From assembly GCA_041671565.1 (NCBI GenBank), contig JBAZBH010000005.1, positions 3,083 to 67,082 of the forward strand: a DNA stretch of 64,000 bases. The letters are read 5' to 3'. Source of the stretch: Patescibacteria group bacterium. Lineage in GTDB: Bacteria; Patescibacteriota; Patescibacteriia; JACRDY01. The position numbers and the translations under genes are program-made. The number at the start of each line of letters is the position of its first letter. Within the stretch, counting starts at the first letter, position 1. Below are positions 3,061-56,640 of the stretch, piece after piece. The notes beneath the pieces are model-generated. The model did no database searches and had not been told where the DNA came from. It worked only from the letters and a program-made list of their open reading frames with translations.

Positions 3061-3128
3061 ATCACATAACACATAACATGGAACAAGCCCTGGATAGCAG
3101 TTTTGTTATGTGTTCCATGTTATGTGAT
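3061..3128. repeat. imperfect hairpin repeat element copy 1 (25-nt arm ATCACATAACACATAACATGGAACA), MITE-like
   Basis: Left arm identical over 25 nt to the copy at 35900..35968; right arm TGTTATGTGTTCCATGTTATGTGAT is largely its reverse complement; intergenic. Confidence 0.55.
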
Positions 3129-3192
3129 TTTCATGTCATGTTATTTCCGTGTTATACTGAATTTACTTGTTAATAATTAATATATTGTCTTT

Positions 3193-3423
3193 ATGAAAGA
3201 CCTCTACCACGGCCTTAATGGCGCCGTCCGCGAGTTGGTTTGGTTTCTGCTCCTGCAGAGTTTATTTCTCTTTGTCTTCGCGGTTTTGGTTTTGTTTTAC
3301 CCTTATTTTTTGGTAATTCTGGTGGCTTTTCTTTTGATCTGTCTTTCGGTGCTTAGCTGCTACTTTGGCATTCGAGTCTATCTGGGTAAACGAAAGATAG
3401 AAAAAATTATTAAGAATTTCTAG
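3193..3423 (+). CDS. small hypothetical membrane protein (2 predicted TM helices)
   Basis: 76-aa ORF with two long hydrophobic stretches; no recognised motif. Confidence 0.3.
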   Translation: MKDLYHGLNGAVRELVWFLLLQSLFLFVFAVLVLFYPYFLVILVAFLLICLSVLSCYFGIRVYLGKRKIEKIIKNF

Positions 3424-6810: not shown

Positions 6811-6898
6811 GTCCGAAGTCCACAGTCCGGAGTCCCGAGGAAGCTCAGAGTTAATTAGCTCAAAGCTCGCTCCGGACTCTGGACTTCGGACTCAGGAC
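6811..6898. repeat. intergenic word-palindrome (GTCCGGAGTC / GACTCCGGAC words); likely terminator after iscS
   Basis: gtccgaagtccacagtccggagtcc ... gctccggactctggacttcggactcaggact forms a long inverted repeat; the same word family recurs at 47900..48005. Confidence 0.6.
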
Positions 6899-6939: not shown

Positions 6940-7332
6940 ATGGTATTAGCGAAATTAAATATTTGGGAGAGCGGCCTGCGCCGGCAATTGAAGTTGGTTT
7001 GGCTGCAAGATAAGATTATATTAGTCTTATTTTTTGTTAGTTTATTTTTAAACCTCGGGTTTTATTTGGCGATTTATTTTAGCATCCGGCCGACTGAGGC
7101 GTCGTTGGTGCTGCACTACTCGGTTTATTTCGGCATTGACTTGATCGGGCCGTGGTTCCAACTTTATTTAACGCCTTTGGTGGGCAGTTTTTTGGGGCTG
7201 ATAAACTTGGCGTTGGCTTTAATTTTTTATCAAAAAGAAAAAATCGCGGCTTATTTGCTGGCGGTGACGACTTTACTCCTGGAGATTTTTTTGTTGATTG
7301 GCGGCGGACTCTTAATTTTAGTTAATAGTTGA
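6940..7332 (+). CDS. hypothetical membrane protein (4 TM)
   Basis: 130-aa ORF, hydrophobic, no motif. Confidence 0.35.
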   Translation: MVLAKLNIWESGLRRQLKLVWLQDKIILVLFFVSLFLNLGFYLAIYFSIRPTEASLVLHYSVYFGIDLIGPWFQLYLTPLVGSFLGLINLALALIFYQKEKIAAYLLAVTTLLLEIFLLIGGGLLILVNS

Positions 7333-7336
7333 GAAG

Positions 7337-7505
7337 GCTGCCAAACTACTTTTGCTGAAATTTGTCCTTTTCGGCTAAGGCTTCGTCAAGGTAGCGGTAA
7401 AATGATTTTCATCGTAGCGCGGCTATGACTCAAATCATTTTACCATCCTTTCCTCGCCTTAACCAAAAAGTCCTAAATTTCAGCTAAAAGCAGTTTGGTA
7501 GCCAT
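7337..7505. repeat. structured repeat element family A, copy 1 (conserved core GGCTAAGGCTTCGTCA..AAAATG..CGTAGC..CATTTT, flanked by a long inverted repeat)
   Basis: Core is shared with 32280..32450; outer arms gctgccaaactacttttgctgaaatttg / caaatttcagctaaaagcagtttggtagcc pair with each other but differ from the arms of copy 2 (compensatory change). Confidence 0.55.
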
Positions 7506-7516
7506 CTCTTAAATTT

Positions 7517-8587
7517 ATGATTGGTTTTTTTGCCATCAAAATTGCCGTTTTGACGACACTGGGGTTCGCGGTGGCGCTCCTTTGGACGCCGCTCTTGACC
7601 CATTTTTTGTATAAATATAAATGTTGGAAAAAAACCGTCCGCACCACAGCGCCGGACGGCGCCGGCACGCCGATATTTAACCAACTGCACCAGCACAAGG
7701 AAACCAATGTGCCGCGGATGGGCGGGCTATTAATTTGGGTGACGACTTTATTTTTGGCTTTTATTTTTTTGATCTTTTGCCCGATTTTCAGCACTTGTTC
7801 TTGGCTCCAGAGCTTAAGCTTTCTCAACCGCGCCGAGACTTGGCTGCCGCTGTTCACTCTGGTCAGCGCTTCACTGATTGGCCTCCTTGATGACATTTTG
7901 GTGGTGCGGGGTTTTGGCGAGAAGGGCAAAGGCGGGGGAATCCGCTTTCGCCATCGTTTGCTGCTCGTTTCGTTGATCGGTTTAATCGGCGGTTGGTGGT
8001 TTTACTTCAAATTGGATTGGGACTCAATCCATATCTTGTTTGATGGCTCGCTGGCGCTCGGTTGGCTGTTTATCCCATTTTTTATTTTGGTGATGATCGC
8101 GATGTTCAGTACCAGCGTGACTGACGGACTGGACGGCCTGGCCGGCGGGTTGTTTATGATTATGTTCGTCGCTTATGGCGCGATTGCTTTTGCCGGCGGC
8201 AAGGTTGACTTGGCGGCTTTTTGCGGCGTGATTGCGGGCACCCTGGCGGCTTTTCTCTGGTTTAATATTCCGCCGGCCAGATTTTATATGACCGAAACAG
8301 GAATTTTGGGTCTCACCACCACTCTCGCGGTTGTGGCTTTTCTGACCAACGCGGTTTTACTTTTGCCAATTATCGCCTTCGTGCCGCTGGCCGAATCCGG
8401 CTCGGTGATTATTCAGCTCTTGTCCAAAAAATTTCGAGGCAAAAAAGTCTTCCTCTCTTCACCCTTGCACCATCACTTGGAGGCCAAGGGCTGGCCCGAA
8501 GCCAAAGTGGTGATGCGGTTTTGGCTGATTGGCGGGGTGACCGCTATTATTGGCGTGGCGCTGTTTCTTCTAGACAAGACTTTTTAG
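7517..8587 (+). CDS. mraY: phospho-N-acetylmuramoyl-pentapeptide transferase MraY
   Basis: Polytopic membrane protein with MraY motifs LIGLLDDILVV and STSVTDGLDGLAGG. Confidence 0.8.
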   Translation: MIGFFAIKIAVLTTLGFAVALLWTPLLTHFLYKYKCWKKTVRTTAPDGAGTPIFNQLHQHKETNVPRMGGLLIWVTTLFLAFIFLIFCPIFSTCSWLQSLSFLNRAETWLPLFTLVSASLIGLLDDILVVRGFGEKGKGGGIRFRHRLLLVSLIGLIGGWWFYFKLDWDSIHILFDGSLALGWLFIPFFILVMIAMFSTSVTDGLDGLAGGLFMIMFVAYGAIAFAGGKVDLAAFCGVIAGTLAAFLWFNIPPARFYMTETGILGLTTTLAVVAFLTNAVLLLPIIAFVPLAESGSVIIQLLSKKFRGKKVFLSSPLHHHLEAKGWPEAKVVMRFWLIGGVTAIIGVALFLLDKTF

Positions 8588-8595
8588 AATTATAT

Positions 8596-11500
8596 ATGAA
8601 TGAAGAATTTACTAAAAATTATTTAAATCGGATAATAGAAACCCATAAAAGCGGTCAGGCGACCGAGCATTCTTATCGTCCGGCACTTCAGGAATTGTTT
8701 GAAAAAGTTACGGCTTTAAGAGTTCATAACGAACCAAAACGGAGCGAATACGGCGCGCCGGATTTTGTTTTTGTCAACAAAAAGATTATAGTCGCTTACG
8801 CTGAAGCTAAGGATATTAATGTTTCTCTTAATGAAATAGAAAAGAGCGAGCAAATGATCCGTTATTATGGTTATACTAATATCATTTTAACCAATTCTTT
8901 GGAATTCAGATTTTATAAAAGCGGCCAAAAGTTTTATGAGCCGATAAAAATTGCCGAATTAAAATCAGGAGAAATTATTGCAGTTGAAGAAAATTTTAAG
9001 TTATTAGATGATTCCATAAAAGATTTTATCAGCGAGGCTAATGAGCCGATAAAATCCGGCGCGGTTTTGGCTAAAGTGATGGCGGGTAAGGCCCGCCGTA
9101 TTCGGGATAACATCAAGAAATTTTTAAAAGAAGGCAATACGCCGGCAAATGAAAGCTTGCTGTCCGTGTATAATGTTATTAAAAGATTACTCTTGGCTGA
9201 TTTGGATCATGATAAATTCGCTGATATGTACGCCCAGACGGTGGTTTATGGTTTATTTGTGGCGCGTTATAACGACGATACCCCTGATACTTTTTCCCGC
9301 CAAGAGGCGCGCGATTTGGTGCCGAGGTCAAATCCATTTTTACGCAAATTTTTTGATCATATTGCCGGGGAGGATTTTGACAAACGGATAGAGTTTATTG
9401 TTAGCGAACTTTGCGAGGAATTTATTCATGCCGATGTAAAGGCGATCGTCCACGATTATTATAAAGTGGAAAAGGATGACAGTCGCGACCCGATTATTCA
9501 TTTTTATGAAGATTTCTTGCAGGAGTATGACGCGGCCGAACGCAAAAAAATGGGAGTTTTTTATACTCCGTTGCCGGTGGTGCGGTTTATTGTGCGGGCG
9601 ATTGATGATGTGCTTAAAAAAGAGTTTGGTTTAAAGGGCTTAGCTGATACTTCTAAAGTGGAAATTCAGGGTGTCAGCCAGGGCAAGAAATATAAACAAA
9701 GCGTCCATAAAGTTCAGATACTTGATCCGGCCACTGGCACCGGTACATTCCTTAACGAAGTAATTGAGTATATTGAAAAATCATTCACCGGTCAGAAAGG
9801 CCGTTGGGTCAGTTATGCCCAGGAGGATCTGTTGCCCCGCCTTCACGGGTTTGAAATTATGATGGCCTCATACACCATCGCCCATCTTAAACTTTCCACC
9901 ACGCTTAAGGAGGGCGGAGTGGATATGGGCAAGGGGCGATTAGGCGTGTATTTGACCAATAGCTTAGAAAAAGCTGAAAGCTATGACAATACTCTTTTTG
10001 CCGGTTTGGGATTGGGTCAGGCAATCACCGATGAATCAGTTGCGGCCAATAAAGTCAAAAACGATCTGCCGATAATGGTGATATTAGGAAATCCGCCCTA
10101 TAATGTCAGTTCGCAGAATAAAGGCGAATGGATTGGCGAGTTGATAAAAGATTATAAGAAGGATTTAGGTGAAAGAAAGATTAACTTGGATGACGATTAT
10201 ATTAAATTTATTCGTTTTTCGCAGTATTTAATAGATAAAAACGGTGAAGGAATTATTGGCATGATTACCAATAATTCATACATAGACGGCATTACCCATC
10301 GGCAGATGCGCAAAACCCTTTTAGAGTCATTTGACTGTATTTATGTTTTAGATTTACACGGCAATGCCAAGAAAAAAGAAACCGCGCCCGACGGTGGTGT
10401 CGATCAGAATGTATTTAGTATTATGCAAGGCGTATCTATTACGATTTTTGTCAAAAAAGCCGGCAAGAAAAAAGCCCTCGGCGCGGTTTATCATGCTGAA
10501 TTATTTGGCAAACAAAAGGATAAATATGAGGCGTTGAACAACGCGACTATAGAAAAAATAAAATGGAAGAAGCTTGACTATAAAGAGCCTTATTATTTTT
10601 TTGTACCTAAAGATTTTAGTTCGCAAGAAGATTATGATAATGGTTTCTTAATAACAGATCTTTTTGATATTTATTCAGCTGGGATAAAAACAAAAGTTGA
10701 TGATATAGCAACTGATTTTAGCAGAAATATTTTATTTGACAGAATAAATAAAATTTTAACAAATAAGCCGTCGTTAAAAGAGCTTATTACTCAATATAAT
10801 CTAGGGACAAATACCACATGGGAATACGAAAAGGCGAGCAGGGCAATTTTTGATGAGTCAAAAATAAGAAATTTTTCATATAGGCCATTTGATTATAGAT
10901 TTGTATATTTTGATCACGATTTTTTATCTAGAAGTAGAAAGAAGGTTATGGAACACATCGTGAAGGATAATTTAGCACTATCTTTTATTCACCAAGGAAG
11001 AAATAAGGGAGTAGAAGCTCTAATTACAAAAGAAGTAACTTGTGAAGATTTTATTACAAACCATACTTTTACGGCTCCACTTTATCTTTACGATGGAAAA
11101 ATAAAAATGGGTGCCTCGGGAACTATTGAGGCCGAAAGAGTGCCAAATCTAAATTTGTTGATTGCAAGAAAGATCGCAGAATGCGTTGAGATGGTTTACT
11201 ACCCGGTTGCGGAATATGAAACTATTAAACCAGACAAGCGTCTTACTCCAGAGAACATCTTAGATTATATTTACGCGGTTTTATATTCTCCAAGTTATCG
11301 CGAGAAATATAAGGAGTTTTTGAAGATTGATTTTCCGCGCGTGCCATATCCCAAAGATGAAAAACAGTTTTTTGCGTTGGCTAGATTGGGCGAGGAATTG
11401 CGTCATCTGCATTTATTGGAAAGTCCGAAAGTTGATAATCCTATTACCACTTATCTAATAGCGGGCGATAATTTAGTTGAAAAAGTTAATTATCAAGATG

Positions 11501-11727
11501 GCAAGGTTTATATCAATAAAACCCAGTATTTTGTCGGAGTACCAGAAGAAGTTTGGAATTTTTATATTGGCGGCTATCAGCCGGCGCAAAAATGGCTTAA
11601 AGACCGCAAAGGCAGAAATCTTGCCAGTGAAGATATTGAACATTATCAAAAAATGATTGTTTCTATTTTTGAAACAATAAGAATTATGAAGGAGATTGAT
11701 CAAATTGTTGAAAAAAATAGTAAATAA
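8596..11727 (+). CDS. Type IIL/IIG restriction-modification enzyme, MmeI family (fused PD-ExK endonuclease, N6-adenine methyltransferase and TRD)
   Basis: N-terminal nuclease motif GAPDFVFVNKKIIVAYAEAK (D..E.K), MTase motif I ILDPATGTGTFL, motif IV ILGNPPYNVSS, total 1043 aa. Start taken at the ATG at 8596 because the track start 8521 overlaps mraY. Confidence 0.8.
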   Translation: MNEEFTKNYLNRIIETHKSGQATEHSYRPALQELFEKVTALRVHNEPKRSEYGAPDFVFVNKKIIVAYAEAKDINVSLNEIEKSEQMIRYYGYTNIILTNSLEFRFYKSGQKFYEPIKIAELKSGEIIAVEENFKLLDDSIKDFISEANEPIKSGAVLAKVMAGKARRIRDNIKKFLKEGNTPANESLLSVYNVIKRLLLADLDHDKFADMYAQTVVYGLFVARYNDDTPDTFSRQEARDLVPRSNPFLRKFFDHIAGEDFDKRIEFIVSELCEEFIHADVKAIVHDYYKVEKDDSRDPIIHFYEDFLQEYDAAERKKMGVFYTPLPVVRFIVRAIDDVLKKEFGLKGLADTSKVEIQGVSQGKKYKQSVHKVQILDPATGTGTFLNEVIEYIEKSFTGQKGRWVSYAQEDLLPRLHGFEIMMASYTIAHLKLSTTLKEGGVDMGKGRLGVYLTNSLEKAESYDNTLFAGLGLGQAITDESVAANKVKNDLPIMVILGNPPYNVSSQNKGEWIGELIKDYKKDLGERKINLDDDYIKFIRFSQYLIDKNGEGIIGMITNNSYIDGITHRQMRKTLLESFDCIYVLDLHGNAKKKETAPDGGVDQNVFSIMQGVSITIFVKKAGKKKALGAVYHAELFGKQKDKYEALNNATIEKIKWKKLDYKEPYYFFVPKDFSSQEDYDNGFLITDLFDIYSAGIKTKVDDIATDFSRNILFDRINKILTNKPSLKELITQYNLGTNTTWEYEKASRAIFDESKIRNFSYRPFDYRFVYFDHDFLSRSRKKVMEHIVKDNLALSFIHQGRNKGVEALITKEVTCEDFITNHTFTAPLYLYDGKIKMGASGTIEAERVPNLNLLIARKIAECVEMVYYPVAEYETIKPDKRLTPENILDYIYAVLYSPSYREKYKEFLKIDFPRVPYPKDEKQFFALARLGEELRHLHLLESPKVDNPITTYLIAGDNLVEKVNYQDGKVYINKTQYFVGVPEEVWNFYIGGYQPAQKWLKDRKGRNLASEDIEHYQKMIVSIFETIRIMKEIDQIVEKNSK

Positions 11728-14584: not shown

Positions 14585-15979
14585 ATGAATGCTTTGGGCT
14601 TAAAAAATAAAAAAGTTCTAGTGATGGGGCTCGGCCTCCACGGCGGGGGGCTGGGCGTGACCAAGTGGCTAATCAAACAAGGCGCGCGGGTGACGGTGAC
14701 TGACTTGAAAACTAAAGAACAGCTGAAAGCTACCCTCCGAGAACTTAAAAGTCTGCCCATCAAATATGTTTTAGGCCGCCATCAGCCGGCCGATTTTAAA
14801 AATGCCGATTTGGTGATCCAAAATCCCGGTGTGCCGAGCGAATCGCCGTTTTTAAAAATTGCCAATAAAGCCGGCGTGCCAGTGGTAACCGACATGAGTT
14901 TGTTTTTTGAGCGTTGTCCGGCGCCGATTATTGGTATTACCGGCACTAAGGGTAAAACCACCACCACGACTTTAATCGGCAAGATTTTTCAGTCTGCCGG
15001 TAAAAAGCCGATTGTCGCCGGCAATATCCGAGTTTCGCCTTTGGATTTTTTGAATAAAATCAAGAAAAATTCCAGTGTGATTCTGGAGCTGTCGTCTTGG
15101 CAACTGGAAGGCCTCGCGCCGCTTAAAATCAGCCCGCAGATTGCTTTGATTACTAATCTTTCGCCCGATCACCTGAACCGCTATCGGTCACTTGGGGATT
15201 ACATTAAAGCCAAAACCCTCATTTTCAAATTTCAGCAGCCGGAAGACATTTGTATTTTAAACCGCGATAATCAAGCCAGTCGTCAGCTCGCGAAGTTGGT
15301 GCCCAGCCGGCTATTCTGGTTTTCCAAAAAGTATTTTACTAGCGGGAACGGCGGGTTTATTAAAGATGGTTGGCTGCGATTCCGTTCGGGAAATAAAACA
15401 GTTAAAGTGATTAAAACTTCGGCGGTCAAAATTCCCGGGGAACATAATTTAGAAAATATTTTAGCGGCGCTATCGTTGGCGCTAGTGGCCGGTGTTTCAT
15501 TGGCGGCGGTTCGGCAAGCGATAAAGCAGTTTACCGGCGTCAGCGACCGGCTGGAGTTAATTAAAACCGTTAAAGGTGTCAGCTATTATAATGACACGAC
15601 AGCGACCGCGCCGACAGCCGCGATCCAGGCTTTAAAAACTTTGGGCGGGCAAAAGAAAAATATAGTTCTCCTTGCCGGCGGGGCGGACAAGAAATTAGAA
15701 TTTGGCGAATTTGCCCAAGCGATAAAAAAATACGCCAAAGCCGTGGTGCTCTTTCGCGGGTCGGCGAGCGTTAAACTTAAAAAAGAATTGTTAAAATTAA
15801 ACTACTGGGTCATGACGGAAGTCGGGAGTATGCCGGCCGCGGTCAGCGCCGCGCAAAAATTGGCGCGAGCGGGCGAAATTATTTTACTCTCGCCGGGCGC
15901 GGCCAGTTTCGGGCTGTTTATTAATGAGTTTGATCGGGGAGAACAATTCAAAAATATCATTAAAGTATTAAAACATTAA
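14585..15979 (+). CDS. murD: UDP-N-acetylmuramoylalanine--D-glutamate ligase MurD
   Basis: N-terminal VLVMGLGLHGGGLGVTKWL Rossmann, Mur ligase GITGTKGKTTTT P-loop, 464 aa. Confidence 0.9.
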   Translation: MNALGLKNKKVLVMGLGLHGGGLGVTKWLIKQGARVTVTDLKTKEQLKATLRELKSLPIKYVLGRHQPADFKNADLVIQNPGVPSESPFLKIANKAGVPVVTDMSLFFERCPAPIIGITGTKGKTTTTTLIGKIFQSAGKKPIVAGNIRVSPLDFLNKIKKNSSVILELSSWQLEGLAPLKISPQIALITNLSPDHLNRYRSLGDYIKAKTLIFKFQQPEDICILNRDNQASRQLAKLVPSRLFWFSKKYFTSGNGGFIKDGWLRFRSGNKTVKVIKTSAVKIPGEHNLENILAALSLALVAGVSLAAVRQAIKQFTGVSDRLELIKTVKGVSYYNDTTATAPTAAIQALKTLGGQKKNIVLLAGGADKKLEFGEFAQAIKKYAKAVVLFRGSASVKLKKELLKLNYWVMTEVGSMPAAVSAAQKLARAGEIILLSPGAASFGLFINEFDRGEQFKNIIKVLKH

Positions 15980-16036
15980 AACTTGAAAACCAGGTGTGGC
16001 AAATTTGTTTTAATGTTTTAATGTTTTAATGTTTTT

Positions 16037-17143
16037 ATGACTCAACGGGGCCATCAGCCAGACTATTTTCTTATCGGCCTTTTCGCCGGGCTCCTGCTTT
16101 TCGGCTTGGTAATTTTGTCGTCGGCTAGCGCGCCGCTTGGCTATCAGAAATTTCAAGATCCTTATTATTTTATAAAGCACCAGCTCCTGACCGGCCTGTT
16201 GCCCGGTTTGATCCTGTTTGTTTTTTTTAGCCGTTTTCATTACCAAAAATTAAATAAACTCGCCATTTCGTTTTTGATTTTTTCCATTGTTTTACTGATT
16301 TTGGTGTTTATTCCGGGTTTGCAGGCAGAATATGGTTCGGCGCGCAGTTGGTTGAATATTTTTGGCTTTTCCGTCCAGCCGTCGGAAATCGTCAAGCTGA
16401 CATTTTTGATTTATTTGGCCGCCTGGCTGAATAACCGCGGCGAGCAGAAGGTTCAAGATCTCCACTCCAGCTTTGTGCCATTTATTGCGGCATTATCAAT
16501 TATTTCGCTCCTAATAATTTTACAGCCGGATTTGGGCACACTTTCAATTATTATCGTGGCGGCGGTGACGGTTTATTTTGTCGGCGGCGGCAATTTACGC
16601 CATTTGGCGGCGATGGGCGCGGCCGGGTTGGCGGCATTTTTACTGCTGATTAAAATCGCGCCTTACCGCATGAACCGGTTTATTGCTTTTTGGTCTCCGG
16701 GTAAAGACACACAAGATGTGACTTATCATCTGTGGCAGTCGTTGATTGCCATTGGTTCGGGCGGGTTCCTTGGTCTCGGTCTCGGCCACTCGCGGCAAAA
16801 GTTTTCCTATCTGCCGGAAGTGTCCGGCGATTCAATTTTCGCCATCATGGGTGAAGAGCTGGGATTTATTTTTACTTGTTTGTTTATCATTTTAATCATC
16901 ATGCTCGCTTACCGCGGTATCCAGCTCGCCAAGAACGCGCCGGACCGCTTCTCTCGCTTGCTGGTCGTCGGGATTATTGCTACTATCTCGTTTCAGGCGT
17001 TTATCAATATGGCCGGACTGTTGGCGCTGATGCCGATGACCGGCATTCCTTTACCGCTGGTTTCGGCCGGCGGCACGGCAATGATGACGACACTGGCGTC
17101 GGCGGGGATATTGGTGAATATTAGCAGGTTTAGCAAAGTTTAA
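16037..17143 (+). CDS. ftsW: FtsW/RodA/SpoVE family peptidoglycan polymerase
   Basis: 10-TM SEDS protein located between murD and murG (dcw order). Confidence 0.8.
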   Translation: MTQRGHQPDYFLIGLFAGLLLFGLVILSSASAPLGYQKFQDPYYFIKHQLLTGLLPGLILFVFFSRFHYQKLNKLAISFLIFSIVLLILVFIPGLQAEYGSARSWLNIFGFSVQPSEIVKLTFLIYLAAWLNNRGEQKVQDLHSSFVPFIAALSIISLLIILQPDLGTLSIIIVAAVTVYFVGGGNLRHLAAMGAAGLAAFLLLIKIAPYRMNRFIAFWSPGKDTQDVTYHLWQSLIAIGSGGFLGLGLGHSRQKFSYLPEVSGDSIFAIMGEELGFIFTCLFIILIIMLAYRGIQLAKNAPDRFSRLLVVGIIATISFQAFINMAGLLALMPMTGIPLPLVSAGGTAMMTTLASAGILVNISRFSKV

Positions 17144-17149
17144 GGGAGA

Positions 17150-17400
17150 ATCATGAATCAAGAATTAAGAATCAAGAAGGTCGGTAAACGGTGTTTAATC
17201 TTTAAGTCTAGTTAGAATGTCCAATATCCAAATCCCAATGTCCAATCAATGTCCAATGACCAAAGGTGGCTATCCCGAAGCGACCCCGTTGTGGCTTGGA
17301 CATTAGTCATTGGGTCCGCCGAATCGGCGGATGGTCATTGGAGCTTGGACATTGATCATTTATTCTTGATTCATGATTCTTAATTCTTGATTCTATTTTA
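17150..17400. repeat. about 240-nt intergenic imperfect palindrome built from GAATCAAGAAT and CCAATG words
   Basis: atcatgaatcaagaattaagaatcaagaa...tccaatatccaaatcccaatgtccaatcaatgtccaatgacc...ccgccgaatcggcgg...ttcttgattcatgattcttaattcttgattc; the arms are reverse complements. Confidence 0.65.
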
Positions 17401-22951: not shown

Positions 22952-23053
22952 ATCAGCGGTTAAGTCGATAGGTTGTTAGGTAGTTATGACGCCGCCTGCG
23001 GCGGCGTTAAGACCTAACGACCTAACTACTTAACCACCTATCAACCTAACCCT

Positions 23054-24651: not shown

Positions 24652-26016
24652 ATGAAAATTTCTTTTCATGGCGCGTGCCGGGAGGTAACCGGCTTTTGTT
24701 GTTTGGTGGAGACGGACGCCGCCAAGTTTTTGGTGGACTGCGGCATGTTTCAGGGCGGCAAATTTGCCGAAGAACATAATCTTGATCCTTTTGGTTTTGA
24801 CCCGAAAACGATTGATTTTGTTCTGCTGACCCACGCCCACGCCGACCATTGCGGCCGTTTGCCGCGGCTGTATAAAGAGGGTTTCCACGGCCAGGTTTAC
24901 GCCACCGAGCCGACCAAAGACTTTGCCCGGATTATGCTGCTCGACTCGGCGCGAGTGATATTTTCTGAGGCGCTCGCGGAAAACCGTTTGCCGCTTTACC
25001 TCGCCGAGGATGTGGAGGGCGTGATGGCGCTATTTAAAGAGCAGAATTATCGGGAGCCATTTCAGCCAACAGCCGATATCCGTGTTCAGGCGCGCGATGC
25101 CGGACATATCTTGGGTTCGGCGTTCTTTGAAGTTTGGGTGAAAGAAGGCGGGGTAGAGAAGAAGTTGGTTTTCTCAGGCGACCTCGGTAACCCGCCCCAG
25201 CCGATTGTCCGCGATACCGAATTCGCGGATAGCGCCGACTTGGTTGTCCTGGAGTCAACTTACGGCGGGCGGATCCATGAACCGGCCGAAATGCGCCTCA
25301 AAATGCTCCAAGAAGCGATTACCGAGTCGGTGGGCCGCGGTGGCGTCCTGATGATCCCGGCTTTTGCCCTGGAGCGGACGCAAGAAGTGCTGTATGAACT
25401 GAACCACTTGGTGGAGAATAAACTGGTGCCGCCGGTGCCGATTTTTATTGACAGCCCGCTGGCAATTAAGGCGACGGAAGTTTATAAAAAATATATTAAT
25501 CTTTATGACGCCGAATCGCGCGCTTTGATCTCGGCCGGCGACGACCTTTTTAACTTTCCCGGCATTCACTACACGCCGACGCCGTCCGAGTCCAAGAAAA
25601 TCAACCAGTGGCCGGCGCCCAAAGTCATCCTCGCCGGCAGCGGCATGTTGGTGGGCGGGCGAATCGGTTATCACCTTAAATATAATCTGGGTGATCCGAA
25701 GAACCATTTGCTGATTATCTCCTGGCAACCGCAAGGCGGCCTGGGCCGGCAACTTCTGGAAGGCGCCAAGTCAGTGGTGGTCGCGGGCGAGCGGCTGGCG
25801 GTCAAAGCTAGAGTGTCGGCGATTGGCGCTTATTCCTCGCACGCCGATCAACCCAAACTTCTACACTGGGTTAAAATGATGGCGCAGAAAACACCGCAAA
25901 AGGTGTTTGTCGTCCACGGTGAAGAGAAGCAAAGTTTGATGGTGGCGGATGGGTTGAAGGAGAAGCTGGGGTTGAACGGGGTGGTGCCGGTAGTGGGGGA
26001 GGTATTTGAAATATAG
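24652..26016 (+). CDS. MBL-fold metallo-hydrolase, beta-CASP ribonuclease family (RNase J/CPSF-like)
   Basis: Metallo-beta-lactamase motif HAHADHCG plus a C-terminal beta-CASP-like region with conserved D/H residues (...AYSSHAD...VVHGEE). Confidence 0.65.
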   Translation: MKISFHGACREVTGFCCLVETDAAKFLVDCGMFQGGKFAEEHNLDPFGFDPKTIDFVLLTHAHADHCGRLPRLYKEGFHGQVYATEPTKDFARIMLLDSARVIFSEALAENRLPLYLAEDVEGVMALFKEQNYREPFQPTADIRVQARDAGHILGSAFFEVWVKEGGVEKKLVFSGDLGNPPQPIVRDTEFADSADLVVLESTYGGRIHEPAEMRLKMLQEAITESVGRGGVLMIPAFALERTQEVLYELNHLVENKLVPPVPIFIDSPLAIKATEVYKKYINLYDAESRALISAGDDLFNFPGIHYTPTPSESKKINQWPAPKVILAGSGMLVGGRIGYHLKYNLGDPKNHLLIISWQPQGGLGRQLLEGAKSVVVAGERLAVKARVSAIGAYSSHADQPKLLHWVKMMAQKTPQKVFVVHGEEKQSLMVADGLKEKLGLNGVVPVVGEVFEI

Positions 26017-26069
26017 CTGTAAGCTGTAAGGTATAAGCTGTAAATATAACGCATTTAAACCTCTGATTA

Positions 26070-26190
26070 CAGTCCAAAGTTCAATCCGCCGAATCGGCGG
26101 ACAAATCAGGTTCAAATGTCAAAACTCCGATAGCCTTTGATCTTTGAACTTGATTTGAACTTTGCACTTTGAACTTTGGATTTTTAACCA
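26070..26190. repeat. intergenic word-palindrome (AAGTTCAAA family) with core hairpin CCGCCGAATCGGCGG
   Basis: cagtccaaagttcaatccgccgaatcggcggacaaatcaggttcaaatg...tctttgaacttgatttgaactttgcactttgaactttgg; the same 15-nt core hairpin is present at 17296..17312. Confidence 0.6.
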
Positions 26191-26253
26191 AGTTTTATAG
26201 AAATAAGTTAACTTACCGGTATACTTACGGCTTATACCTTAAAGCTTACAGCT

Positions 26254-26285
26254 AAAAAACAACGGAGGTTAAATTCGTTGTTTTT
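26254..26285 (-). terminator. rho-independent terminator for gyrB (minus strand)
   Basis: AAAACAACG-N11-CGTTGTTTT read on the minus strand, followed by a T-run. Confidence 0.5.
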
Positions 26286-31582: not shown

Positions 31583-32272
31583 ATGGCTAATTTATTGCTC
31601 AAAGCCACGGTTCGCGAGGCAACCGGCCGCGGCGTAGAAAAACTCCGAGAAAACAACTTATTGCCGGCGGTGCTTTACGGTCGGGAGCTGACTAACCAGA
31701 ATTTGGCGGTTAATTACCGTGATTTTGCCAAAGTTTTTCAAACTGCCGGAGAAAGCGCGATTGTTGACCTGCAAATTGGCGAGGCGCCAGCCGTGCCGGT
31801 GCTGATTCAGGATGTGCAGTATCATCCGCTCCGCCAGCAAGCGATTCACGCTGATTTTTATCAGGTGAGAATGGACGAGAAATTGACTGCCAACATTCCC
31901 TTGACACTGGTCGGCGAAGCGCCGGCGGTCAAAGAACAAGGCGCGATTTTCTTCACCAGCTTGGAAACGATCGAAGTTAAATGTTTGCCGGCCGATTTGC
32001 CGAAAGAAGTAGTGGTTGATTTGTCCAGCCTCAAAAATTTTGGCGACCGGATTTTGGTTAAAGATTTACCGCTTGGCGATAAAGTGGAAGTTTTGTCCGG
32101 CGCGGAACTGACTGTGGTGTCAGTTGCCGAACCGCGAGCCGAAGAAGTGGAAGTGAAGGTAGAAGCTCCAGTGGTTGAGGGCGCAGCTCCGGTTGAAGGC
32201 GCTGAAGGTGGCGCGGCCCCAGTAGCGGGCGCGGAGGCGGCCGGTAAAGAAGGCAAAGCGGCCAAAAAATAA
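31583..32272 (+). CDS. rplY: 50S ribosomal protein L25 / general stress protein Ctc
   Basis: N-terminal L25 domain (LKATVREATGRGVEKLRENNLLPAVLYG) plus a Ctc-type C-terminal extension with an Ala/Glu/Gly-rich tail. Confidence 0.8.
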   Translation: MANLLLKATVREATGRGVEKLRENNLLPAVLYGRELTNQNLAVNYRDFAKVFQTAGESAIVDLQIGEAPAVPVLIQDVQYHPLRQQAIHADFYQVRMDEKLTANIPLTLVGEAPAVKEQGAIFFTSLETIEVKCLPADLPKEVVVDLSSLKNFGDRILVKDLPLGDKVEVLSGAELTVVSVAEPRAEEVEVKVEAPVVEGAAPVEGAEGGAAPVAGAEAAGKEGKAAKK

Positions 32273-32279
32273 ATGAGAT

Positions 32280-32450
32280 GGTTACAAAACTATTTCGACT
32301 GCAATTTTAGCTTTTTGGCTACGGCTTCGTCAGACTTCGCAAAATGCCTCTTACCGTAGCCCCGCTACGGTTTCGAGCCATTTTGCTCGTCTTCCTCGCC
32401 TCGCCTAAAAACCTAAAATTTCGTTACGAAATAGTTTTGTAACCATCTCA
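32280..32450. repeat. structured repeat element family A, copy 2
   Basis: Core GGCTACGGCTTCGTCA..AAAATG..TACCGTAGC..CATTTTGC..tcctcgcct..aaaaacctaaaattt is shared with 7337..7505; outer arms ggttacaaaactatttcgactgcaatttt / aaaatttcgttacgaaatagttttgtaacc are self-complementary but differ in sequence from those of copy 1. Confidence 0.55.
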
Positions 32451-33535: not shown

Positions 33536-33690
33536 ATTAAGATTTTAACAATTTTTAATTTAAAATTTCTAATTTTTAATCAATTTTTAAGGCTTAATTT
33601 TTAATTTTAAATCTAACGCCGGATTACCGGCGTTTTAAAATTAGAAATTAATAATTCATTAAAAATTTTAAATTAAAAATTAAAAATTGC
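33536..33690. repeat. AT-rich word-palindrome element (AAAATTAAAAATT words) with central GC hairpin; homologous copy at 56487..56632
   Basis: ...aatttttaatttaaaatttctaatttttaat...aacgccggattaccggcgtt...ttagaaattaataattcattaaaaattttaaattaaaaattg shares long segments with the 56.5-kb copy. Confidence 0.55.
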
Positions 33691-34600: not shown

Positions 34601-34607
34601 AAAATAA

Positions 34608-34785
34608 GCTCAAAAGTCAAAAGTCAAAGCTCAAAACCACAACGCAAAAGGCAAAACTACAGTTCTTAACCCCTTATTCAAAAGATTTACTTATCCTCTT
34701 CTAATACCTTTGGTATCAAGTACGGAGAAGATTAAGTTTTGAGTTTTGAGCTGTGGTTTTGACTTTTGAGCTTTGAGTTTTAAGT
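34608..34785. repeat. intergenic word-palindrome (AAGTCAAAAG / CTCAAAAC words) between prmC and prfA
   Basis: ctcaaaagtcaaaagtcaaagctcaaaaccacaacgcaaaaggcaaaactacag...gttttgagttttgagctgtggttttgacttttgagctttgagttttaag. Confidence 0.6.
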
Positions 34786-35823
34786 TTGTTTCCGGCTGGC
34801 TTCTTTCAACGCCGCGACGACTTCTTCAATCTCGCCATTCATGATCCGGTCAATGCCAAACCAGCTTTGTTTGATGCGGTGATCGGTCAGGCGGTCCTGG
34901 GGGAAGTTATAAGTGCGGATTTTCTCGCTGCGGTCGCCGGAGCCGACTTGATTTTTGCGGAGATCCGCCTCTTCTTTTTGGCGTTTTTCTTCCTCGGCTT
35001 CAAGGAGGCGCGAGCGCAGGACTTTCATCGCTTTCTCGCGGTTCTGCAGTTGGCTCCGTTCGTCTTGGCAGGAAACCACCACGCCGGTGGGCAAGTGGGT
35101 GATGCGGACGGCCGAATAAGTGGTGTTGACCGATTGACCACCATGGCCGCCGGCGCAAAAAGTGTCGATCCGCAGGTCTTTGGGGTTGATGGCGATGTCG
35201 ATTTCTTCCGCCTGAGGCAAAACCGCGACCGTGGCCGCCGAAGTATGGATCCGGCCGGCTTTCTCGGTTTCCGGTACCCGTTGGACGCGGTGGGTACCGC
35301 TTTCAAACTTCAGCTCGCCATAAACCCCCGGGCCGTTGATTTCACAGATCATTTCTTTGTAGCCGCCAATCTCGGTGCGGTTAGCCTCAATCACCTTGAC
35401 CTGCCAGCCGCGCTTTTCGGCGTAGCGGGAATACATCCGGAAAAGGTCAGCGGCAAAAAGCGCTGATTCGTCGCCGCCGGTGCCGCCGCGAATTTCCAAA
35501 ATAATGCTTTTCTGGTCGCGCGGGTTGGCCGGGTGCAAGAGGTCGTCGATTTCTTTTTCCAGCTTTTCTTTTTGGCCGCGCAATTCAAAAAGATCCACCT
35601 CGGCCAGTTCTTTCAGGTCCGGGTCGTTGTCGCGGAGCGTCAGCTCGCTTTCGCCGATTTGCCGGTCCACGGTTTCCAGTTGGCGGACCCGGTCCATGAT
35701 TTCCTTGGCGGCGGCGTATTTTTGCGACAGGCTTTTCAATTTTTGCGGGTCAGAACCGAGGCTCGGGTCTTGGAGATCGCGCTCCATGGCGAGAAAGTCG
35801 GATTTGAGTTGGGGGATATTCAT
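34780..35823 (-). CDS. prfA: peptide chain release factor 1
   Basis: GGQ motif ([12 protein letters not shown]), RF1-type codon-recognition region; 347 aa. Confidence 0.9.
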
Positions 35824-35899
35824 AAAGGAGATTTAAGATTTAAGATTTAGGATTTAAGAAGGCCGGTAGATTAGCATCCTACAATATAACTTGGTTAAA

Positions 35900-35968
35900 A
35901 TCACATAACACATAACATGGAACAAGGGTGGTTATAGGTCTCTTGTTATATGTTCCATGTTATGTGAT
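35900..35968. mobile_element. MITE-like hairpin element copy 2 (same 25-nt arm as 3061..3128) flanked by 8-bp direct repeat CTTGGTTA
   Basis: aaCTTGGTTAaa|ATCACATAACACATAACATGGAACA-loop-TGTTATATGTTCCATGTTATGTGAT|atCTTGGTTAtt; sits at the centre of the prfA-rpmE intergenic ATTTAAGATTT word-palindrome (35826..36045). Confidence 0.55.
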
Positions 35969-36093
35969 ATCTTGGTTATTAGTCTTAACACCAATTACCG
36001 ACATTCTTAAGTCTTAAATCCTAAATCTTTCAACAAAAAACCCCATTCCACTATAGCAAAAATTTGCCAAAAAAGGAATGGGATTTGGAGTAG

Positions 36094-39825: not shown

Positions 39826-39900
39826 CGGGGCTAGCCAAAACCGCGGTTTTGCGCTAGAATAGTTGGAGTAAATACCTAAATTTACAGGAGCCTACCTCGC
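39826..39900 (+). promoter_or_regulatory. conserved promoter module copy 3 (TAGCCA-17-TAGAAT) upstream of the HlyD-family gene
   Basis: ggggCTAGCCAaaaccgcggttttgcgcTAGAATagttggagtaaatacctaaatttacaggagcctacctcgc, 45-nt match to copies 1 and 2. Confidence 0.45.
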
Positions 39901-40060
39901 AAATAGCTTCTACTGCGATTGGCGAATTTTGGCTACAAATTGTTCAAAACTCGTCAGCATAACCAGGTTATGCCTCCTCGTTTTTCACAATTTTCGCTCA
40001 AAATTCGCTCAATCTCGTGACGAAGCTATTTGTGAGATAGGCTCTAATTATTTTAATTTT

Positions 40061-41728: not shown

Positions 41729-41852
41729 GTAGGAAATGACAAAATCCCAATGTCCAATCAATGCCAAATGCCAAAAGGTGGTAATTTGACATTAAGCATT
41801 TGGATTTGATTGGATATTTGAGCTTTGTCATTCTTGAAATTGAAATATTTAT

Positions 41853-42578
41853 ATGTCCAAACCAATCATTCAAGTCGTTGACTTAAAAAAAGATTATACC
41901 AACGAAGAAGTCATCACCTCAGTTCTCCGCGGGGTGAGTTTTGTGATTAACCCGGGCGAGTTTGTGGCGATTATGGGGCCGTCGGGCTCGGGCAAATCAA
42001 CCCTGATGCATATCTTGGGACTTTTAGACCGGGCAACGGTCGGCGATTATCTTTTGAAAGGCGGCAATGTCAAAGACCTGACCGACGAGGCGCTTGCCGA
42101 AACGCGCCTGCGAACGATTGGCTTTATTTTTCAAGCGTTTAATCTGCTACCGCGGCAGTCGGCTCTCGAGAATGTTAAACTGCCTTTGGTTTATAACCGC
42201 GAGGTGAATATTACCGCGCGCGCGGCTAAAGCCCAGGCGGCTTTGGAGGCGGTGGGCCTCGGGCACCGGTTAAATTTTCTCGCCAACCAGCTCTCCGGCG
42301 GCGAGAAACAGCGGGTGGCAATTGCCCGGGCACTGGTCAACGATCCGGATATTATTTTTGCTGATGAACCGACCGGCAACCTGGACAGCAAATCCGGCGA
42401 GGCGGTCATGGAAATTTTGGAAAAACTGAACGACAGCGGCAAAACCATTATCTTGGTGACCCACGAAAAAGACACGGCCGAACACGCCAAACGGGTGATC
42501 AAAATCCGCGACGGTATGCTCGCCGGCGACGAGATGGTGGAGAACCGGCGGTTGGCTAAGGACGGACTACAGAAGTAA
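41853..42578 (+). CDS. ABC transporter ATP-binding protein (MacB/LolD-type)
   Basis: Walker A GPSGSGKST, signature LSGGEKQRVAIARAL, Walker B IIFADEPTGNLD. Confidence 0.85.
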   Translation: MSKPIIQVVDLKKDYTNEEVITSVLRGVSFVINPGEFVAIMGPSGSGKSTLMHILGLLDRATVGDYLLKGGNVKDLTDEALAETRLRTIGFIFQAFNLLPRQSALENVKLPLVYNREVNITARAAKAQAALEAVGLGHRLNFLANQLSGGEKQRVAIARALVNDPDIIFADEPTGNLDSKSGEAVMEILEKLNDSGKTIILVTHEKDTAEHAKRVIKIRDGMLAGDEMVENRRLAKDGLQK

Positions 42579-42701
42579 TGTAAAATTTAAAAATCAAAAT
42601 GGAAAATGACAATTTAAAATTAAAAATGTCTGGTAGAATAGCTGATTCATTAAATCGCCGAGAAGCTGGCAATTTTACATTTTACACTGTCATTTTCCAT
42701 T

Positions 42702-43952
42702 TTGATTTTTGATTTTTCAATTATGTACTTCTTGGACGCGATAAAAATGGCCGAACGCAACTTGCTCGCCAACAAAAAGCGGGCGGTTTTGACTATCTTA
42801 GGGATTGTTATCGGCATTACGGCGGTGATTGTGATTATGGCAGTTGGCGCCGGCGCGCAAGGTTTGGTGGTGGGGCAGATCAATAGCCTCGGTTCAAACT
42901 TAGTCGGCATTTTGCCGGGCGGCGGCGACAGCAAAAGTCCGCCGGCTTTTGTTTTTGGCATTATTATTACCACTCTCAAAAATGACGATATCTACGCGAT
43001 TCGGCGTCAAGTGCCGGCCGTGGTGGCGGCTAGCGGTATTGTCACGGCGAACGAAACCGCGTCGCATGAAAATCAGAGCGGCGCTTTTAGTATCTATGGC
43101 TGTTCGGCCGAGTTTCCGGCGGTGAATGATCTGGAGGTGGACAGCGGCCGCTGGTTCACCGAGGAAGAAGAAAAGGGCCTGGGCCGAGTGGCAGTGCTTG
43201 GCAGCCAGGTGGCAATCGATTTGTTTGAAGGCGATGATCCGCTGGGGCAGAAAATTAAAATTAAAAAAGAGTCTTTTACCGTGATTGGCGTGACTAAGCC
43301 CAAAGGCGCGGTGATGACCGAGAATTTCGACAAGACAATCTATTTGCCGGTGAGCGCGGCGCAGAAATTGATCCTCGGGATTGATTACCTCAATTTTGCC
43401 CGGGTGAAAATCGACGAGGCGGCTAATATCGGGCCGGCGATTAGCGAGATCGAAAGTATTTTACGCGACCGGCATAATATTGATAACCCGAGCGACGATG
43501 ACTTTAGCGTCCGCGACCAGGCGCAGGCTTTGGATATTCTGACTCAAATCACCGACTATTTGCGGTTTTTTCTCGCGGCAGTGGCGGCGATTGCCCTCTT
43601 GGTCGGCGGCATCGGCATTATGAATATCATGCTGGTGTCGGTGACCGAACGGACTCGGGAAATCGGCCTCCGTAAAGCCGTCGGCGCGACCGAGGGCCAA
43701 ATTCTCCTGCAATTTCTTTTGGAAGCGGTTTTTCTCACCGTGATTGCCGGCGTGGTCGGAGTGATACTCGGCGGACTGATATCTTTTTTAATTTCTCTAG
43801 TCATGCAATCCTTGGGTTACAGCTGGCTGTTTAGTATTTCTTTTGGTTCAATCGTTTTGGCAGTTGGCGTCGCCGGCGGCATCGGCCTAGTTTTTGGCTA
43901 TTATCCGGCAAAACGGGCGGCGCGGCTGGATCCGGTGGAAGCGCTGCGATAA
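42702..43952 (+). CDS. ABC transporter permease, FtsX/MacB-like (4 TM plus large periplasmic domain)
   Basis: MacB_PCD-like periplasmic domain then FtsX domain (GGIGIMNIMLVSVTERTREIGLRKAVGA). Confidence 0.8.
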   Translation: MIFDFSIMYFLDAIKMAERNLLANKKRAVLTILGIVIGITAVIVIMAVGAGAQGLVVGQINSLGSNLVGILPGGGDSKSPPAFVFGIIITTLKNDDIYAIRRQVPAVVAASGIVTANETASHENQSGAFSIYGCSAEFPAVNDLEVDSGRWFTEEEEKGLGRVAVLGSQVAIDLFEGDDPLGQKIKIKKESFTVIGVTKPKGAVMTENFDKTIYLPVSAAQKLILGIDYLNFARVKIDEAANIGPAISEIESILRDRHNIDNPSDDDFSVRDQAQALDILTQITDYLRFFLAAVAAIALLVGGIGIMNIMLVSVTERTREIGLRKAVGATEGQILLQFLLEAVFLTVIAGVVGVILGGLISFLISLVMQSLGYSWLFSISFGSIVLAVGVAGGIGLVFGYYPAKRAARLDPVEALR

Positions 43953-44087
43953 CTTATTTCCTTTATTTTAGGCCTTGGTTAAGGTTTCTAACACTAGAGT
44001 TGAAAGTTATAAAGTTATAAAGTTGAAAGTTAGGGAACTTTAAAACTTTATAACTTTCAACTTTATAACTTTGGTCGGCAAAAGTTT

Positions 44088-45323: not shown

Positions 45324-45498
45324 CGGTAAGCCCCGAAGGGGCCTCTTCGGGGCAATAAGCTGTAAGCTATAAGGGGTGGATGAGCCACGAATAGCGTAAA
45401 TTTAACCCTTATAGCTTACCGCTTAATCTGGACTATTTCCTAATTTGTGCTAAAGTCGGGGTATCAAAGTAACTGTTTTAACCCAGGAGGTGTTAGCC

Positions 45499-47885: not shown

Positions 47886-47899
47886 TTTTCTTTTGGGGG

Positions 47900-48005
47900 A
47901 GTCCACAGTCCAGAGTCCGGAGTGAGCTGTTAGCTAATAAATCCCAAGGGGATCCCTTTGGGACTCTGAGCTTTCTCTGAACTCCGGACTCGGGACTCTG
48001 GACTC
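47900..48005. repeat. intergenic word-palindrome (GTCCGGAGTC family, as at 6811..6898)
   Basis: gagtccacagtccagagtccggagtgagc...gaactccggactcgggactctggactc. Confidence 0.6.
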
Positions 48006-53538: not shown

Positions 53539-54633
53539 ATGGCAAAAGATTATTACGCTACCCTCGGCGTCGGGAAAGGCGCCAGCCAGGACGAGATTAA
53601 GAAGGCCTTCCGCGAGAAGGCCCATCTTTATCATCCGGATAAAAAAGGCGGCGATGAGGCGAAGTTTAAAGAAGCAAGCGAAGCCTACCAGACTCTCAGC
53701 AATCCGGAAAAACGGCAACAGTATGATCGTTTTGGTTCTGATGCCGGTTTTCAGGGTGGCGGCGCCGGTGGGTTCAATTGGCAAGATTTCGCGCGGCAAC
53801 AGGGCGGGTTTTCTTCTGGCGGCGCGGATTTCAACGGCGGTTTCGGCGATATTTTTGGTGATTTGGGCGAGATGTTTGGTTTTGGTGGCGGCCGGTCAGG
53901 CGGCCGGCGCGGGCCGCAGCGCGGCGAAGACATTCAGGCTGAGTTGGCAGTGGATTTTCTAGAAAGTGTTTTTGGCGCCGAGAAAACCGTGGAACTCCAA
54001 AAAACCATTGTCTGCGAGCATTGCCTTGGCAATGGCGCGGAGCCGGGCAGTAAAATCAATACCTGCTCAACTTGCGGCGGCTCGGGTCAGGTGGAGCAAG
54101 TCCAGCGGACGATACTTGGCAATATGCGGGTGGCGTCAGTTTGCCCGACGTGTAATGGCGAAGGCAAGAAAGCGGAAAAGCCCTGCAGTCGTTGCCGCGG
54201 CAAGGGCGTTTATTCCGACCGGCAAGCAATCAAGATTAAAATCCCGGCGGGTATTGCCAACGGCCAGAGCATTCGGCTCAGTGGCCAGGGCGAAGCTGGG
54301 GAGCGCGGCGCCGGCGCGGGCGACTTGTATATCAGTGTTAAAGTTAAAGCCGATCCGCGGTTCAAGCGGCAGGGCGATAATATCCTAACCACGGAGAAAA
54401 TCAGTTTTCGCCAGGCGGCCTTGGGCGACAAGATTGAAGTGGCGACGGTCCACGGTTCAGTGGTTTTGAAAATTCCCGATGGCACCCAGACCGGCAAAGT
54501 TTTCAAACTCAGCGGCAAAGGCGTGCCGCATTTGGGCGGCGGGGGAACGGGCGACCATTTGGTGGAGGTGGTGGTGGTGACACCGACGCGGCTAAGCCGG
54601 AGCCAGAAGAAGTTGATCGAAGGGCTGGAATAA
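53539..54633 (+). CDS. dnaJ: molecular chaperone DnaJ
   Basis: J-domain DYYATLGV...HPDK, Gly/Phe-rich region, four CxxCxGxG zinc-finger repeats, C-terminal domains. Confidence 0.9.
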   Translation: MAKDYYATLGVGKGASQDEIKKAFREKAHLYHPDKKGGDEAKFKEASEAYQTLSNPEKRQQYDRFGSDAGFQGGGAGGFNWQDFARQQGGFSSGGADFNGGFGDIFGDLGEMFGFGGGRSGGRRGPQRGEDIQAELAVDFLESVFGAEKTVELQKTIVCEHCLGNGAEPGSKINTCSTCGGSGQVEQVQRTILGNMRVASVCPTCNGEGKKAEKPCSRCRGKGVYSDRQAIKIKIPAGIANGQSIRLSGQGEAGERGAGAGDLYISVKVKADPRFKRQGDNILTTEKISFRQAALGDKIEVATVHGSVVLKIPDGTQTGKVFKLSGKGVPHLGGGGTGDHLVEVVVVTPTRLSRSQKKLIEGLE

Positions 54634-54635
54634 CA

Positions 54636-54786: not shown

Positions 54787-54839
54787 TCTAATTTTCACCT
54801 CTTTTATTCTTACCCAAATAATGCTAAGATTTCCTCATT

Positions 54840-56632: not shown

Positions 56633-56640
56633 TTGTTTAT

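Follow-up and report, generated by a model that had tools for sequence, protein, structure and literature searches.

Long-hairpin MITEs, which are non-coding and 100–200 bp in length, are known from several bacterial hosts and include Correia/NEMIS (Neisseria), ERIC (enterobacteria), RUP (Streptococcus pneumoniae) and QMITEs (Coxiella). Correia elements duplicate TA, and RUP is thought to be mobilised by an IS. Elements of the Correia, ERIC, RUP and QMITE type have inverted termini and short target duplications, occupy A+T-rich intergenic sites in multiple copies and are co-transcribed as stem-loops (PMC10969869, PMC2229807). For prokaryotic MITEs, A+T-rich intergenic targets, direct repeats, inverted repeats and transcripts that form stable stem-loops have been described, and processing of the transcript by RNase III is known for Correia elements (PMC10969869). 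In the literature searched, no MITE was described from Patescibacteria, whose genomes are very small and reduced, and a 2024 review of prokaryotic MITEs does not mention Patescibacteria.

The 170-base repeat analysed here was found in a 64-kb stretch of Patescibacteria DNA (64,000 nucleotides, hereafter the window). It resembles the Correia/NEMIS, ERIC, RUP and QMITE elements in being a non-coding long hairpin of 100–200 bp, but its sequence is unrelated to theirs, its hosts are Patescibacteria/CPR, and its interior combines stems of strong covariation with two unpaired pyrimidine/purine motifs that are highly conserved; unlike Correia, it duplicates 3 bp. A 3-bp A+T-rich target duplication is also made by Tourist-like MITEs and PIF-Harbinger elements, whose transposase superfamily is related to IS5, but these elements belong to eukaryotic hosts and have no sequence in common with the repeat, and their second, Myb-like protein was not seen here. 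REP/BIME sequences with RAYT transposases are likewise palindromes located between genes; they are co-transcribed and can influence the stability of mRNA, but REPs are only 20–40 nt long and have neither a target duplication nor a DDE partner. Among insertion sequences of the IS5 type, the IS1031 group is listed in ISfinder with GAG termini. IS1031/IS427-group elements are 860–899 bp long and carry inverted repeats of 17–22 bp, and the IS1031 group is reported to have a 3-nt insertion site (PMC3196728, PMC2516522).

From sequence comparison, the repeat is judged, with a probability of about 0.9, to be a non-coding MITE that is moved by an IS5-type transposase between genes of many ultra-small Patescibacteria/CPR. 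An IS5-family transposase (a DDE enzyme of ~260 aa, encoded by an IS of ~910 bp and supplied in trans) would bind both termini of the MITE, excise it and insert it into A+T-rich trinucleotides of intergenic spacers, duplicating 3 bp. We infer that an enzyme of the type encoded by the IS at locus L069 (see below) performs this reaction, and the details of DDE cut-and-paste are taken from established knowledge of the IS5 family. The preference for A+T-rich intergenic trinucleotides would explain the position of copies directly beside stop and start codons. Those in the window would represent insertions into otherwise short spacers of a Patescibacteria genome, while the remainder of the element would form a long hairpin that is co-transcribed with the flanking genes.

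Copies in the window

The sequence-only reading described two copies with a shared core, which alignment confirmed as real; the limits given for both were slightly too narrow, and a third, diverged copy had been missed. The limits established here, together with the target-site duplication of copy 2 and the conserved unpaired motifs, are as follows.

7331..7508, plus strand: putative MITE copy 1; 178 bp; diverged subfamily; ends GAGAAGGCTGCC...GGTAGCCATCTC; model R1 178.7 bits (plus) vs 92.3 bits (minus)
32275..32449, plus strand: putative MITE copy 2; 175 bp; canonical termini GAGATGGTTACAAAACTATTTC / GAAATAGTTTTGTAACCATCTC; model R1 181.8 bits (plus)
39888..40044, plus strand: putative MITE copy 3; 157 bp; sister subfamily; other termini GAGCCTACCTCGCAAATAGC / GCTATTTGTGAGATAGGCTC
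32272..32274, no strand: left 3-bp target-site duplication of copy 2 (AAT); overlaps the final base of the L25 stop codon
32450..32452, no strand: right 3-bp target-site duplication of copy 2 (AAT)
32326..32331 (copy 2) and 7382-7387 (copy 1), plus strand: unpaired motif TTCGTC on the 5' side of the internal loop; GACGAA on the minus strand
32392..32397 (copy 2) and 7450-7455 (copy 1), plus strand: unpaired motif TTCCTC on the 3' side of the internal loop; GAGGAA on the minus strand

Copy 1 is situated between the stop of ORF 6940-7332 and the start of an MraY-like gene (7517), copy 2 between the L25/TL5 gene (stop 32270-32272) and a DUF3048 gene (start 32467), whose protein has closest homologues that are only ~50% identical, and copy 3 just upstream of a membrane-fusion-protein gene starting at ~40061. 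The genes flanking copy 1 are co-directional with each other, as are those flanking copy 2. Copies 1 and 2 have the ends GAGA[A/T]GG...CCATCTC. In copy 2, both termini agree with the 18-nt consensus at every position, and three further assemblies of this organism carry copy 2 unchanged. The 18-nt terminus has three matches in the window, with 0.05 expected. The trinucleotides flanking copy 1 (GTT/TTA) do not form a perfect duplication, and neither do the degenerate flanks of copy 3. Copy 3 emerged from the covariance-model search that had been proposed along with the two original copies, and which also detected many copies in metagenome contigs; the model, built from ten copies, places it at 39886-40048 with 80.6 bits on the plus strand vs 32.3 bits on the minus strand. 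It contains the same two loop motifs, which enclose a short apical hairpin. Within the elements (175–178 bp), no ORF reaches 50 aa; of the ORFs listed, only two, 7480-7929 and 7484-7696 (minus strand), extend into copy 1, and most of each lies beyond it, overlapping mraY.

Folded alone, copies 1 and 2 each form a single long imperfect hairpin with a duplex of ~80 bp (MFE -73.3 and -70.3 kcal/mol; z = -11.6 and -13.1, respectively), and none of 200 dinucleotide shuffles was as stable. Their arms are diverged versions of each other, in which ~5 double changes, counted by eye, preserve pairing, in agreement with the earlier description of self-complementary arms that differ between copies.

Several features of the surroundings of copy 1 are worth recording. 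The stop codon of ORF 6940-7332 (TGA, 7330-7332) is composed of the last flanking T and the first two bases (GA) of copy 1, so this reading frame owes its present end to the insertion. Between the right end of copy 1 and the MraY start codon there are 8 nt, in which no ribosome-binding site is recognisable. On the downstream side of the MraY-like gene, positions 8521-11727 encode a Type ISP restriction-modification enzyme of 1068 aa (domains N6_Mtase, Eco57I and Type_ISP_C), an odd neighbour for a cell-wall gene, and its longest reading frame overlaps the end of the MraY-like gene.

Target duplications, distribution and a candidate IS5-family partner

With the element ends set at GAGATGGTT...AACCATCTC, identical 3-bp flanks were present at 54 of the 76 distinct insertion sites among the metagenome matches listed, while shuffling of the flank pairing gave a mean of 10.1 identical trinucleotides and a maximum of 19 in 2000 trials; flank identity at 2, 4 or 5 bp gave no signal at the same 76 sites. 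The duplicated targets are A+T-rich (AAT, ATT, TAT, ATA and TAA). The gene order FtsW-hyp-L25-DUF3048-PrmC-RF1-L31 is kept in three relatives (L034, L036 and L038), in which the L25|DUF3048 spacer measures 8, 22 and 98 nt vs 194 nt in the window. Removal of copy 2 and one AAT from the window spacer leaves 16 nt, within the range of the relatives, and the predicted empty site reads ...AAAAATAAAT|TTCAACTG...; the covariance model, run over the 21-kb syntenic loci of the three relatives, found no copy. The relatives are distant (~50% protein identity), so these empty sites represent polymorphism between lineages rather than between sister strains, a point that weighs against the MITE reading.

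The termini of the element also occur without its core. Mini elements of 33–53 bp, consisting of the MITE termini alone joined head to head, were found at several independent sites (L073:11084-11132, L076:7039-7087, L094:7252-7300, L152:601-649, L163:3637-3685, L068:1023-1075 and L135:8284-8316). Their 3-bp flanks are perfect in five of the seven, agree at two of three bases in one and show no duplication in L135. Since mini elements carry duplications, the core is apparently not needed for mobility; it would seem that either insertion requires no more than the termini or one internal deletion has arisen repeatedly.

A genome scan with the core pattern, using one genome per species, yielded 20 loci. 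Ten of these are true members (nine full-length), all with the same termini and core, and they belong to four Patescibacteria-named MAGs, one MAG labelled 'bacterium' and a 2-kb contig labelled Gammaproteobacteria. The lineages of the host MAGs are unclassified Patescibacteria, Liptonbacteria, Parcubacteria and Gottesmanbacteria, and the copies are ~80–90% identical. Two of the other loci correspond to a repeat of Alicyclobacillus herbarius, and the remaining eight look like chance. Because the core pattern itself forced conservation of the core, metagenomes were scanned with a terminus-only pattern, which returned at least 119 loci. The metagenome matches listed include ~70 full-length copies, scoring ~160–200 bits in one orientation vs ~90 in the other, and ~25 further matches cut at contig ends, which points to assemblies breaking at a repeat; four copies, including three full-length ones, occur together on one 10-kb contig. 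The repeat is common in Patescibacteria metagenomes and visibly breaks their assemblies. All copies are intergenic, often 0–20 nt from a stop or start codon, and many lie within co-directional gene strings. No further copies were detected by the covariance model in the 8-kb flanks of the genome-scan matches, and plasmid and phage collections gave no match (blastn, distant mode). Thirty viral-contig matches to the loop-motif pattern were taken as chance: none of the seven most stably folding ones, which were inspected (G+C 0.61–0.76), forms the hairpin, and the rest fold weakly.

A candidate autonomous partner is the 910-bp IS at L069:667-1576, observed once, on a 1.7-kb metagenome contig. Its ends are identical to those of the MITE over 17 nt (GAGATGGTTACAAAACT) and are inverted with one mismatch, but beyond the termini, which in the MITE extend over ~20 bp (GAGATGGTT(A/G)CAAAA(C/T)T...), the two are unrelated. 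Two consecutive ORFs of the IS match PF13340 (6.7e-25) and PF01609/PF13586 (7.3e-16) and cover positions 1-107 and 134-254 of the 258 positions of NCBIfam NF033580 'IS5 family transposase'; their combined score is 206 bits vs a cut-off of 110, with each ORF alone below the cut-off. The split of the transposase may reflect a programmed frameshift or decay. In its length, its inverted termini and its DUF4096 plus DDE_Tnp_1 transposase in two ORFs, the L069 element is similar to IS5 elements of the IS1031/IS427 type, and the 3-bp duplication of the MITE matches that of the IS1031 group; unlike IS5-family elements, the MITE is non-coding and has an interior unrelated to the IS.

Some observations fit the MITE reading less well. 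A search with tblastn revealed no transposase homologue in the 64-kb window. The autonomous IS, known from a single copy with split ORFs, is itself flanked by TAT/AAT, which match at two of three bases, and copies 1 and 3 lack a perfect duplication. On the other hand, all the features that define a MITE at the sequence level were observed: the element is short and non-coding, has inverted termini, is flanked by a 3-bp duplication, is multicopy and patchily distributed, and has termini in common with an IS. The termini, the duplication and the IS partner support what the sequence-only reading had offered as its second choice, namely a MITE whose inverted repeats diverged in concert.

A second IS5-family element, at L162 (~640-1555), encodes a transposase that is 45–50% identical to that of L069 and is interrupted by a stop codon. 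The termini of window copy 3 and of L135:2149-2314 are similar to the terminus of this element, GAGCTTATTTCAAAACT, and it may be the partner of the copy-3 subfamily. The termini GGTTGCAAA resemble those of IS6-like elements; an IS6-like identity was rejected, as there is no 8-bp duplication and the partner is of the IS5 type.

The hairpin interior and competing explanations

Covariation was assessed in 33 copies less than 93% identical to one another. Paired cells amount to 95.4% vs 86.2% in shuffles, and 31 of the 49 pairs show double changes vs 16.4 in shuffles and 8–13 when the partners were slid; none of 500 shuffles reached the observed value on any of five covariation measures. Helix 1, formed by the terminal inverted repeats (16 pairs), is 97.3% paired across the 33 diverse copies, and every interior helix contributes to the signal. 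Related sequences can exceed shuffles without any structure, but both the slid controls and the variety of pair types speak for a real effect. The earlier claim of a hairpin kept by compensatory change thus has strong statistical backing. Part of this covariation is to be expected, because both termini must fit the same transposase; the interior stems, however, covary too.

The two loop motifs are the best conserved part of the interior, with column identities of 96% (TTCGTC) and 94% (TCCTC) vs ~80% for the rest of the interior in the 33 copies, most of which were not selected on the loop motifs. Both motifs are direct on one strand rather than inverted, which gives the element polarity. On the purine-rich strand, 5'-GAGGA-3' and 5'-GACGAA-3' could form two tandem sheared G.A pairs around a G-C pair, to judge from the sequence, and in the diverged copy L135 the central G and C are exchanged between the two sides of the loop. 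This strand folds better both as RNA (-96/-99 vs -81/-83 kcal/mol) and as DNA (-59.1 vs -48.1). G.U and A.C occur in similar numbers, most of them at a few inherited positions, with no clean strand bias.

Some constraint on the folded form, whether as RNA, as single-stranded DNA or through arm-to-arm correction, is therefore real. Neither the upkeep of interior stems by compensatory change nor the retention of two unpaired motifs at 94–96% identity would be expected of an element that is purely selfish, and both speak against the MITE reading. Possible sources of the conservation include a folded intermediate, arm-to-arm correction, spread from few master copies, and a role of the transcript at the level of the host.

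A related core was encountered outside Patescibacteria. The repeat of Alicyclobacillus herbarius DSM 13609 is present at L043:2559-2693 and in L059 (~3125-3260, minus strand), the two copies being 98% identical over ~135 nt; it is located upstream of an MFS transporter gene and adjoins a glucose-6-phosphate dehydrogenase gene, and it has no Rfam match. Its core is that of the MITE (GC-TTCGTCA-GCGCCCAAAATGC...GCATTTTGGGC-TAGC-TTCCTC-GC), but its outer arms differ (GTCCGGAAAGGGGTTAG...). A core common to a Firmicute repeat with different arms would likewise be unexpected for a selfish element. It is conceivable, if rather doubtful, that the ~100-nt interior hairpin is a functional module, a protein-binding or processing signal acting as RNA or single-stranded DNA, which would be shared by Patescibacteria MITEs with unrelated termini (the main family and the copy-3 subfamily) and by the Alicyclobacillus herbarius repeat.

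The alternative that survives best is compatible with a plain MITE and adds a function to it: the hairpin may have been put to use by the host. It would stabilise or attenuate the mRNA of the surrounding operon or serve as a site for processing by RNase III or RNase E, as has been shown for Correia and ERIC elements, with the loop as a protein-binding platform. This possibility, which we regard as unlikely but worth keeping in view, is favoured by the position of the copies between genes, by the ~80-bp duplex with its covarying interior stems and well-conserved loops, by mini elements in which the core seems dispensable for mobility, and by precedents in Neisseria and Yersinia (PMC10969869). 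A strand-specific role in RNA should, however, bias the orientation of the copies, and the two orientations are about equal: among the matches listed, both flanking genes run along the element in 23 cases vs against it in 14, and inclusion of one-sided cases gives ~37 to 32. Conservation of the interior may also reflect recent spread from few master copies, and the mini elements could be deletions that occurred after insertion.

The balance of orientations also weighs against the reading preferred in the sequence-only analysis, that of a conserved structured non-coding or cis-regulatory RNA family in which selection on folding explains the compensatory changes. The very stable fold and the strong covariation speak for such a family, as do the unpaired motifs, whose potential tandem G.A pairs would form on the purine-rich, better-folding strand. 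The same covariation is also expected for a DNA palindrome under arm-to-arm constraint, and the G.U and A.C mismatches show no clean bias towards one strand. The element is absent from the orthologous junction in three relatives, is flanked by target-site duplications and has termini in common with an IS. The genes downstream of copies 1 and 2, encoding an MraY-like glycosyltransferase and a DUF3048 protein, have no similarity, and a gene-specific leader was rejected for this reason. A scan for promoters and terminators identified nothing shared between copies. Mixed orientation together with the lack of a shared promoter or terminator is what insertion at the DNA level predicts, unlike a strand-specific RNA gene or leader. 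At the gathering score, Rfam recognised only tRNAs in the window, and in E-value mode copies 1 and 2 gave only plant miRNA-precursor models far below threshold, as is typical of any long hairpin. Of the properties expected of an RNA family, covariation was thus found, while a fixed orientation, retention at orthologous junctions and a match to a described family were not, and we consider this explanation very improbable. A resemblance to the hammerhead motif (CUGACGA...GAA) was also dismissed, as the hairpin does not branch and so lacks a three-way junction. A kink-turn was considered as a further possible form of the loop.

Movement of the hairpin as single-stranded DNA by a tyrosine/HUH enzyme, as in REP/RAYT or IS200/IS605-derived systems, or its use as an integron attC-like site, would be consistent with a whole-element hairpin with conserved unpaired bases, with its marked polarity (~170 bits on one strand vs ~90 on the other) and with the retention of structure while sequence varies. 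Such systems, however, make no 3-bp target duplications, whereas the element does, and a DDE IS with identical termini exists; these two facts led to rejection of the attC, REP/RAYT and IS200/IS605 readings. Moreover, the flanking genes are housekeeping genes and not cassettes, and an unsystematic look revealed no Y1/HUH gene adjoining any copy. An explanation of this kind is extremely improbable.

The idea of a merely local palindrome, that is, one of the 'word' hairpins of this genome with a core shared only through within-genome duplication, draws on the presence of more than 15 other long intergenic word hairpins in the window, but its probability is negligible, since those hairpins score ~20 bits, equally on both strands, and it is already refuted by the recurrence of these termini and this core in many further genomes and metagenomes. 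Word hairpins, built from tandem 6–8-nt 'words' followed by their complement (e.g. AAGATTTAAGATTTAGGATTT, GAGTCCACAGTCCAGAGTCC and ATTCGTAATTCGTA), occupy many of the longer intergenic gaps of the window, and their low, strand-symmetric scores show that they are not members of the MITE family. They are located at the following positions.

6811-6895, 15957-16040, 17147-17394, 22962-23049, 26014-26254, 33549-33689, 34602-34791, 35824-36047: word hairpins
41735-41832, 42576-42723, 43995-44065, 45354-45429, 47899-48005, 54629-54793, 56484-56639, 57941-58016: word hairpins

The syntenic relatives L034 and L038 have spacers of 0–70 nt at the word-hairpin junctions, and in L036, the relative from Falkowbacteria, the L25|DUF3048 spacer itself contains a word hairpin (L036:9903-10000). 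A small GC-rich hairpin, TCCGCCGAATCGGCGGA, occurs twice in the window (17317-17333 and 26085-26101), nested in larger hairpins. Elsewhere, MITE copies carry insertions of comparable small GC hairpins (CCGCCAGAGGCGG, CCGCCAAAGGCGG, CCTGCCGGCAGGCAGG and longer ones), the copies or loci linked with them being L042, L143, L085, L102, L150, L116 and L151, and several sit exactly in the conserved loops (TTCG|TCA and TTC|CTC). These hairpins may constitute a second, even smaller mobile or REP-like family.

Significance for Patescibacteria

The element very probably belongs to a new MITE family of a well-known kind and is not a new RNA gene. An apparent new RNA family has thereby become an explained feature with limits, termini, a target duplication and a partner transposase, and the case demonstrates why covariation by itself does not tell a functional RNA apart from a transposon that is palindromic. 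Insertion directly against essential genes, such as mraY and the gene for ribosomal protein L25, implies that the MITEs are co-transcribed with core operons. The conserved loop and the core that recurs across phyla are the only part of the element that could prove to be more than a MITE of known type. If the interior hairpin is indeed a functional module, the MITE would spread a ready-made regulatory hairpin into operons, and, with a functional loop, the element would be a natural vehicle for the dissemination of such a hairpin.
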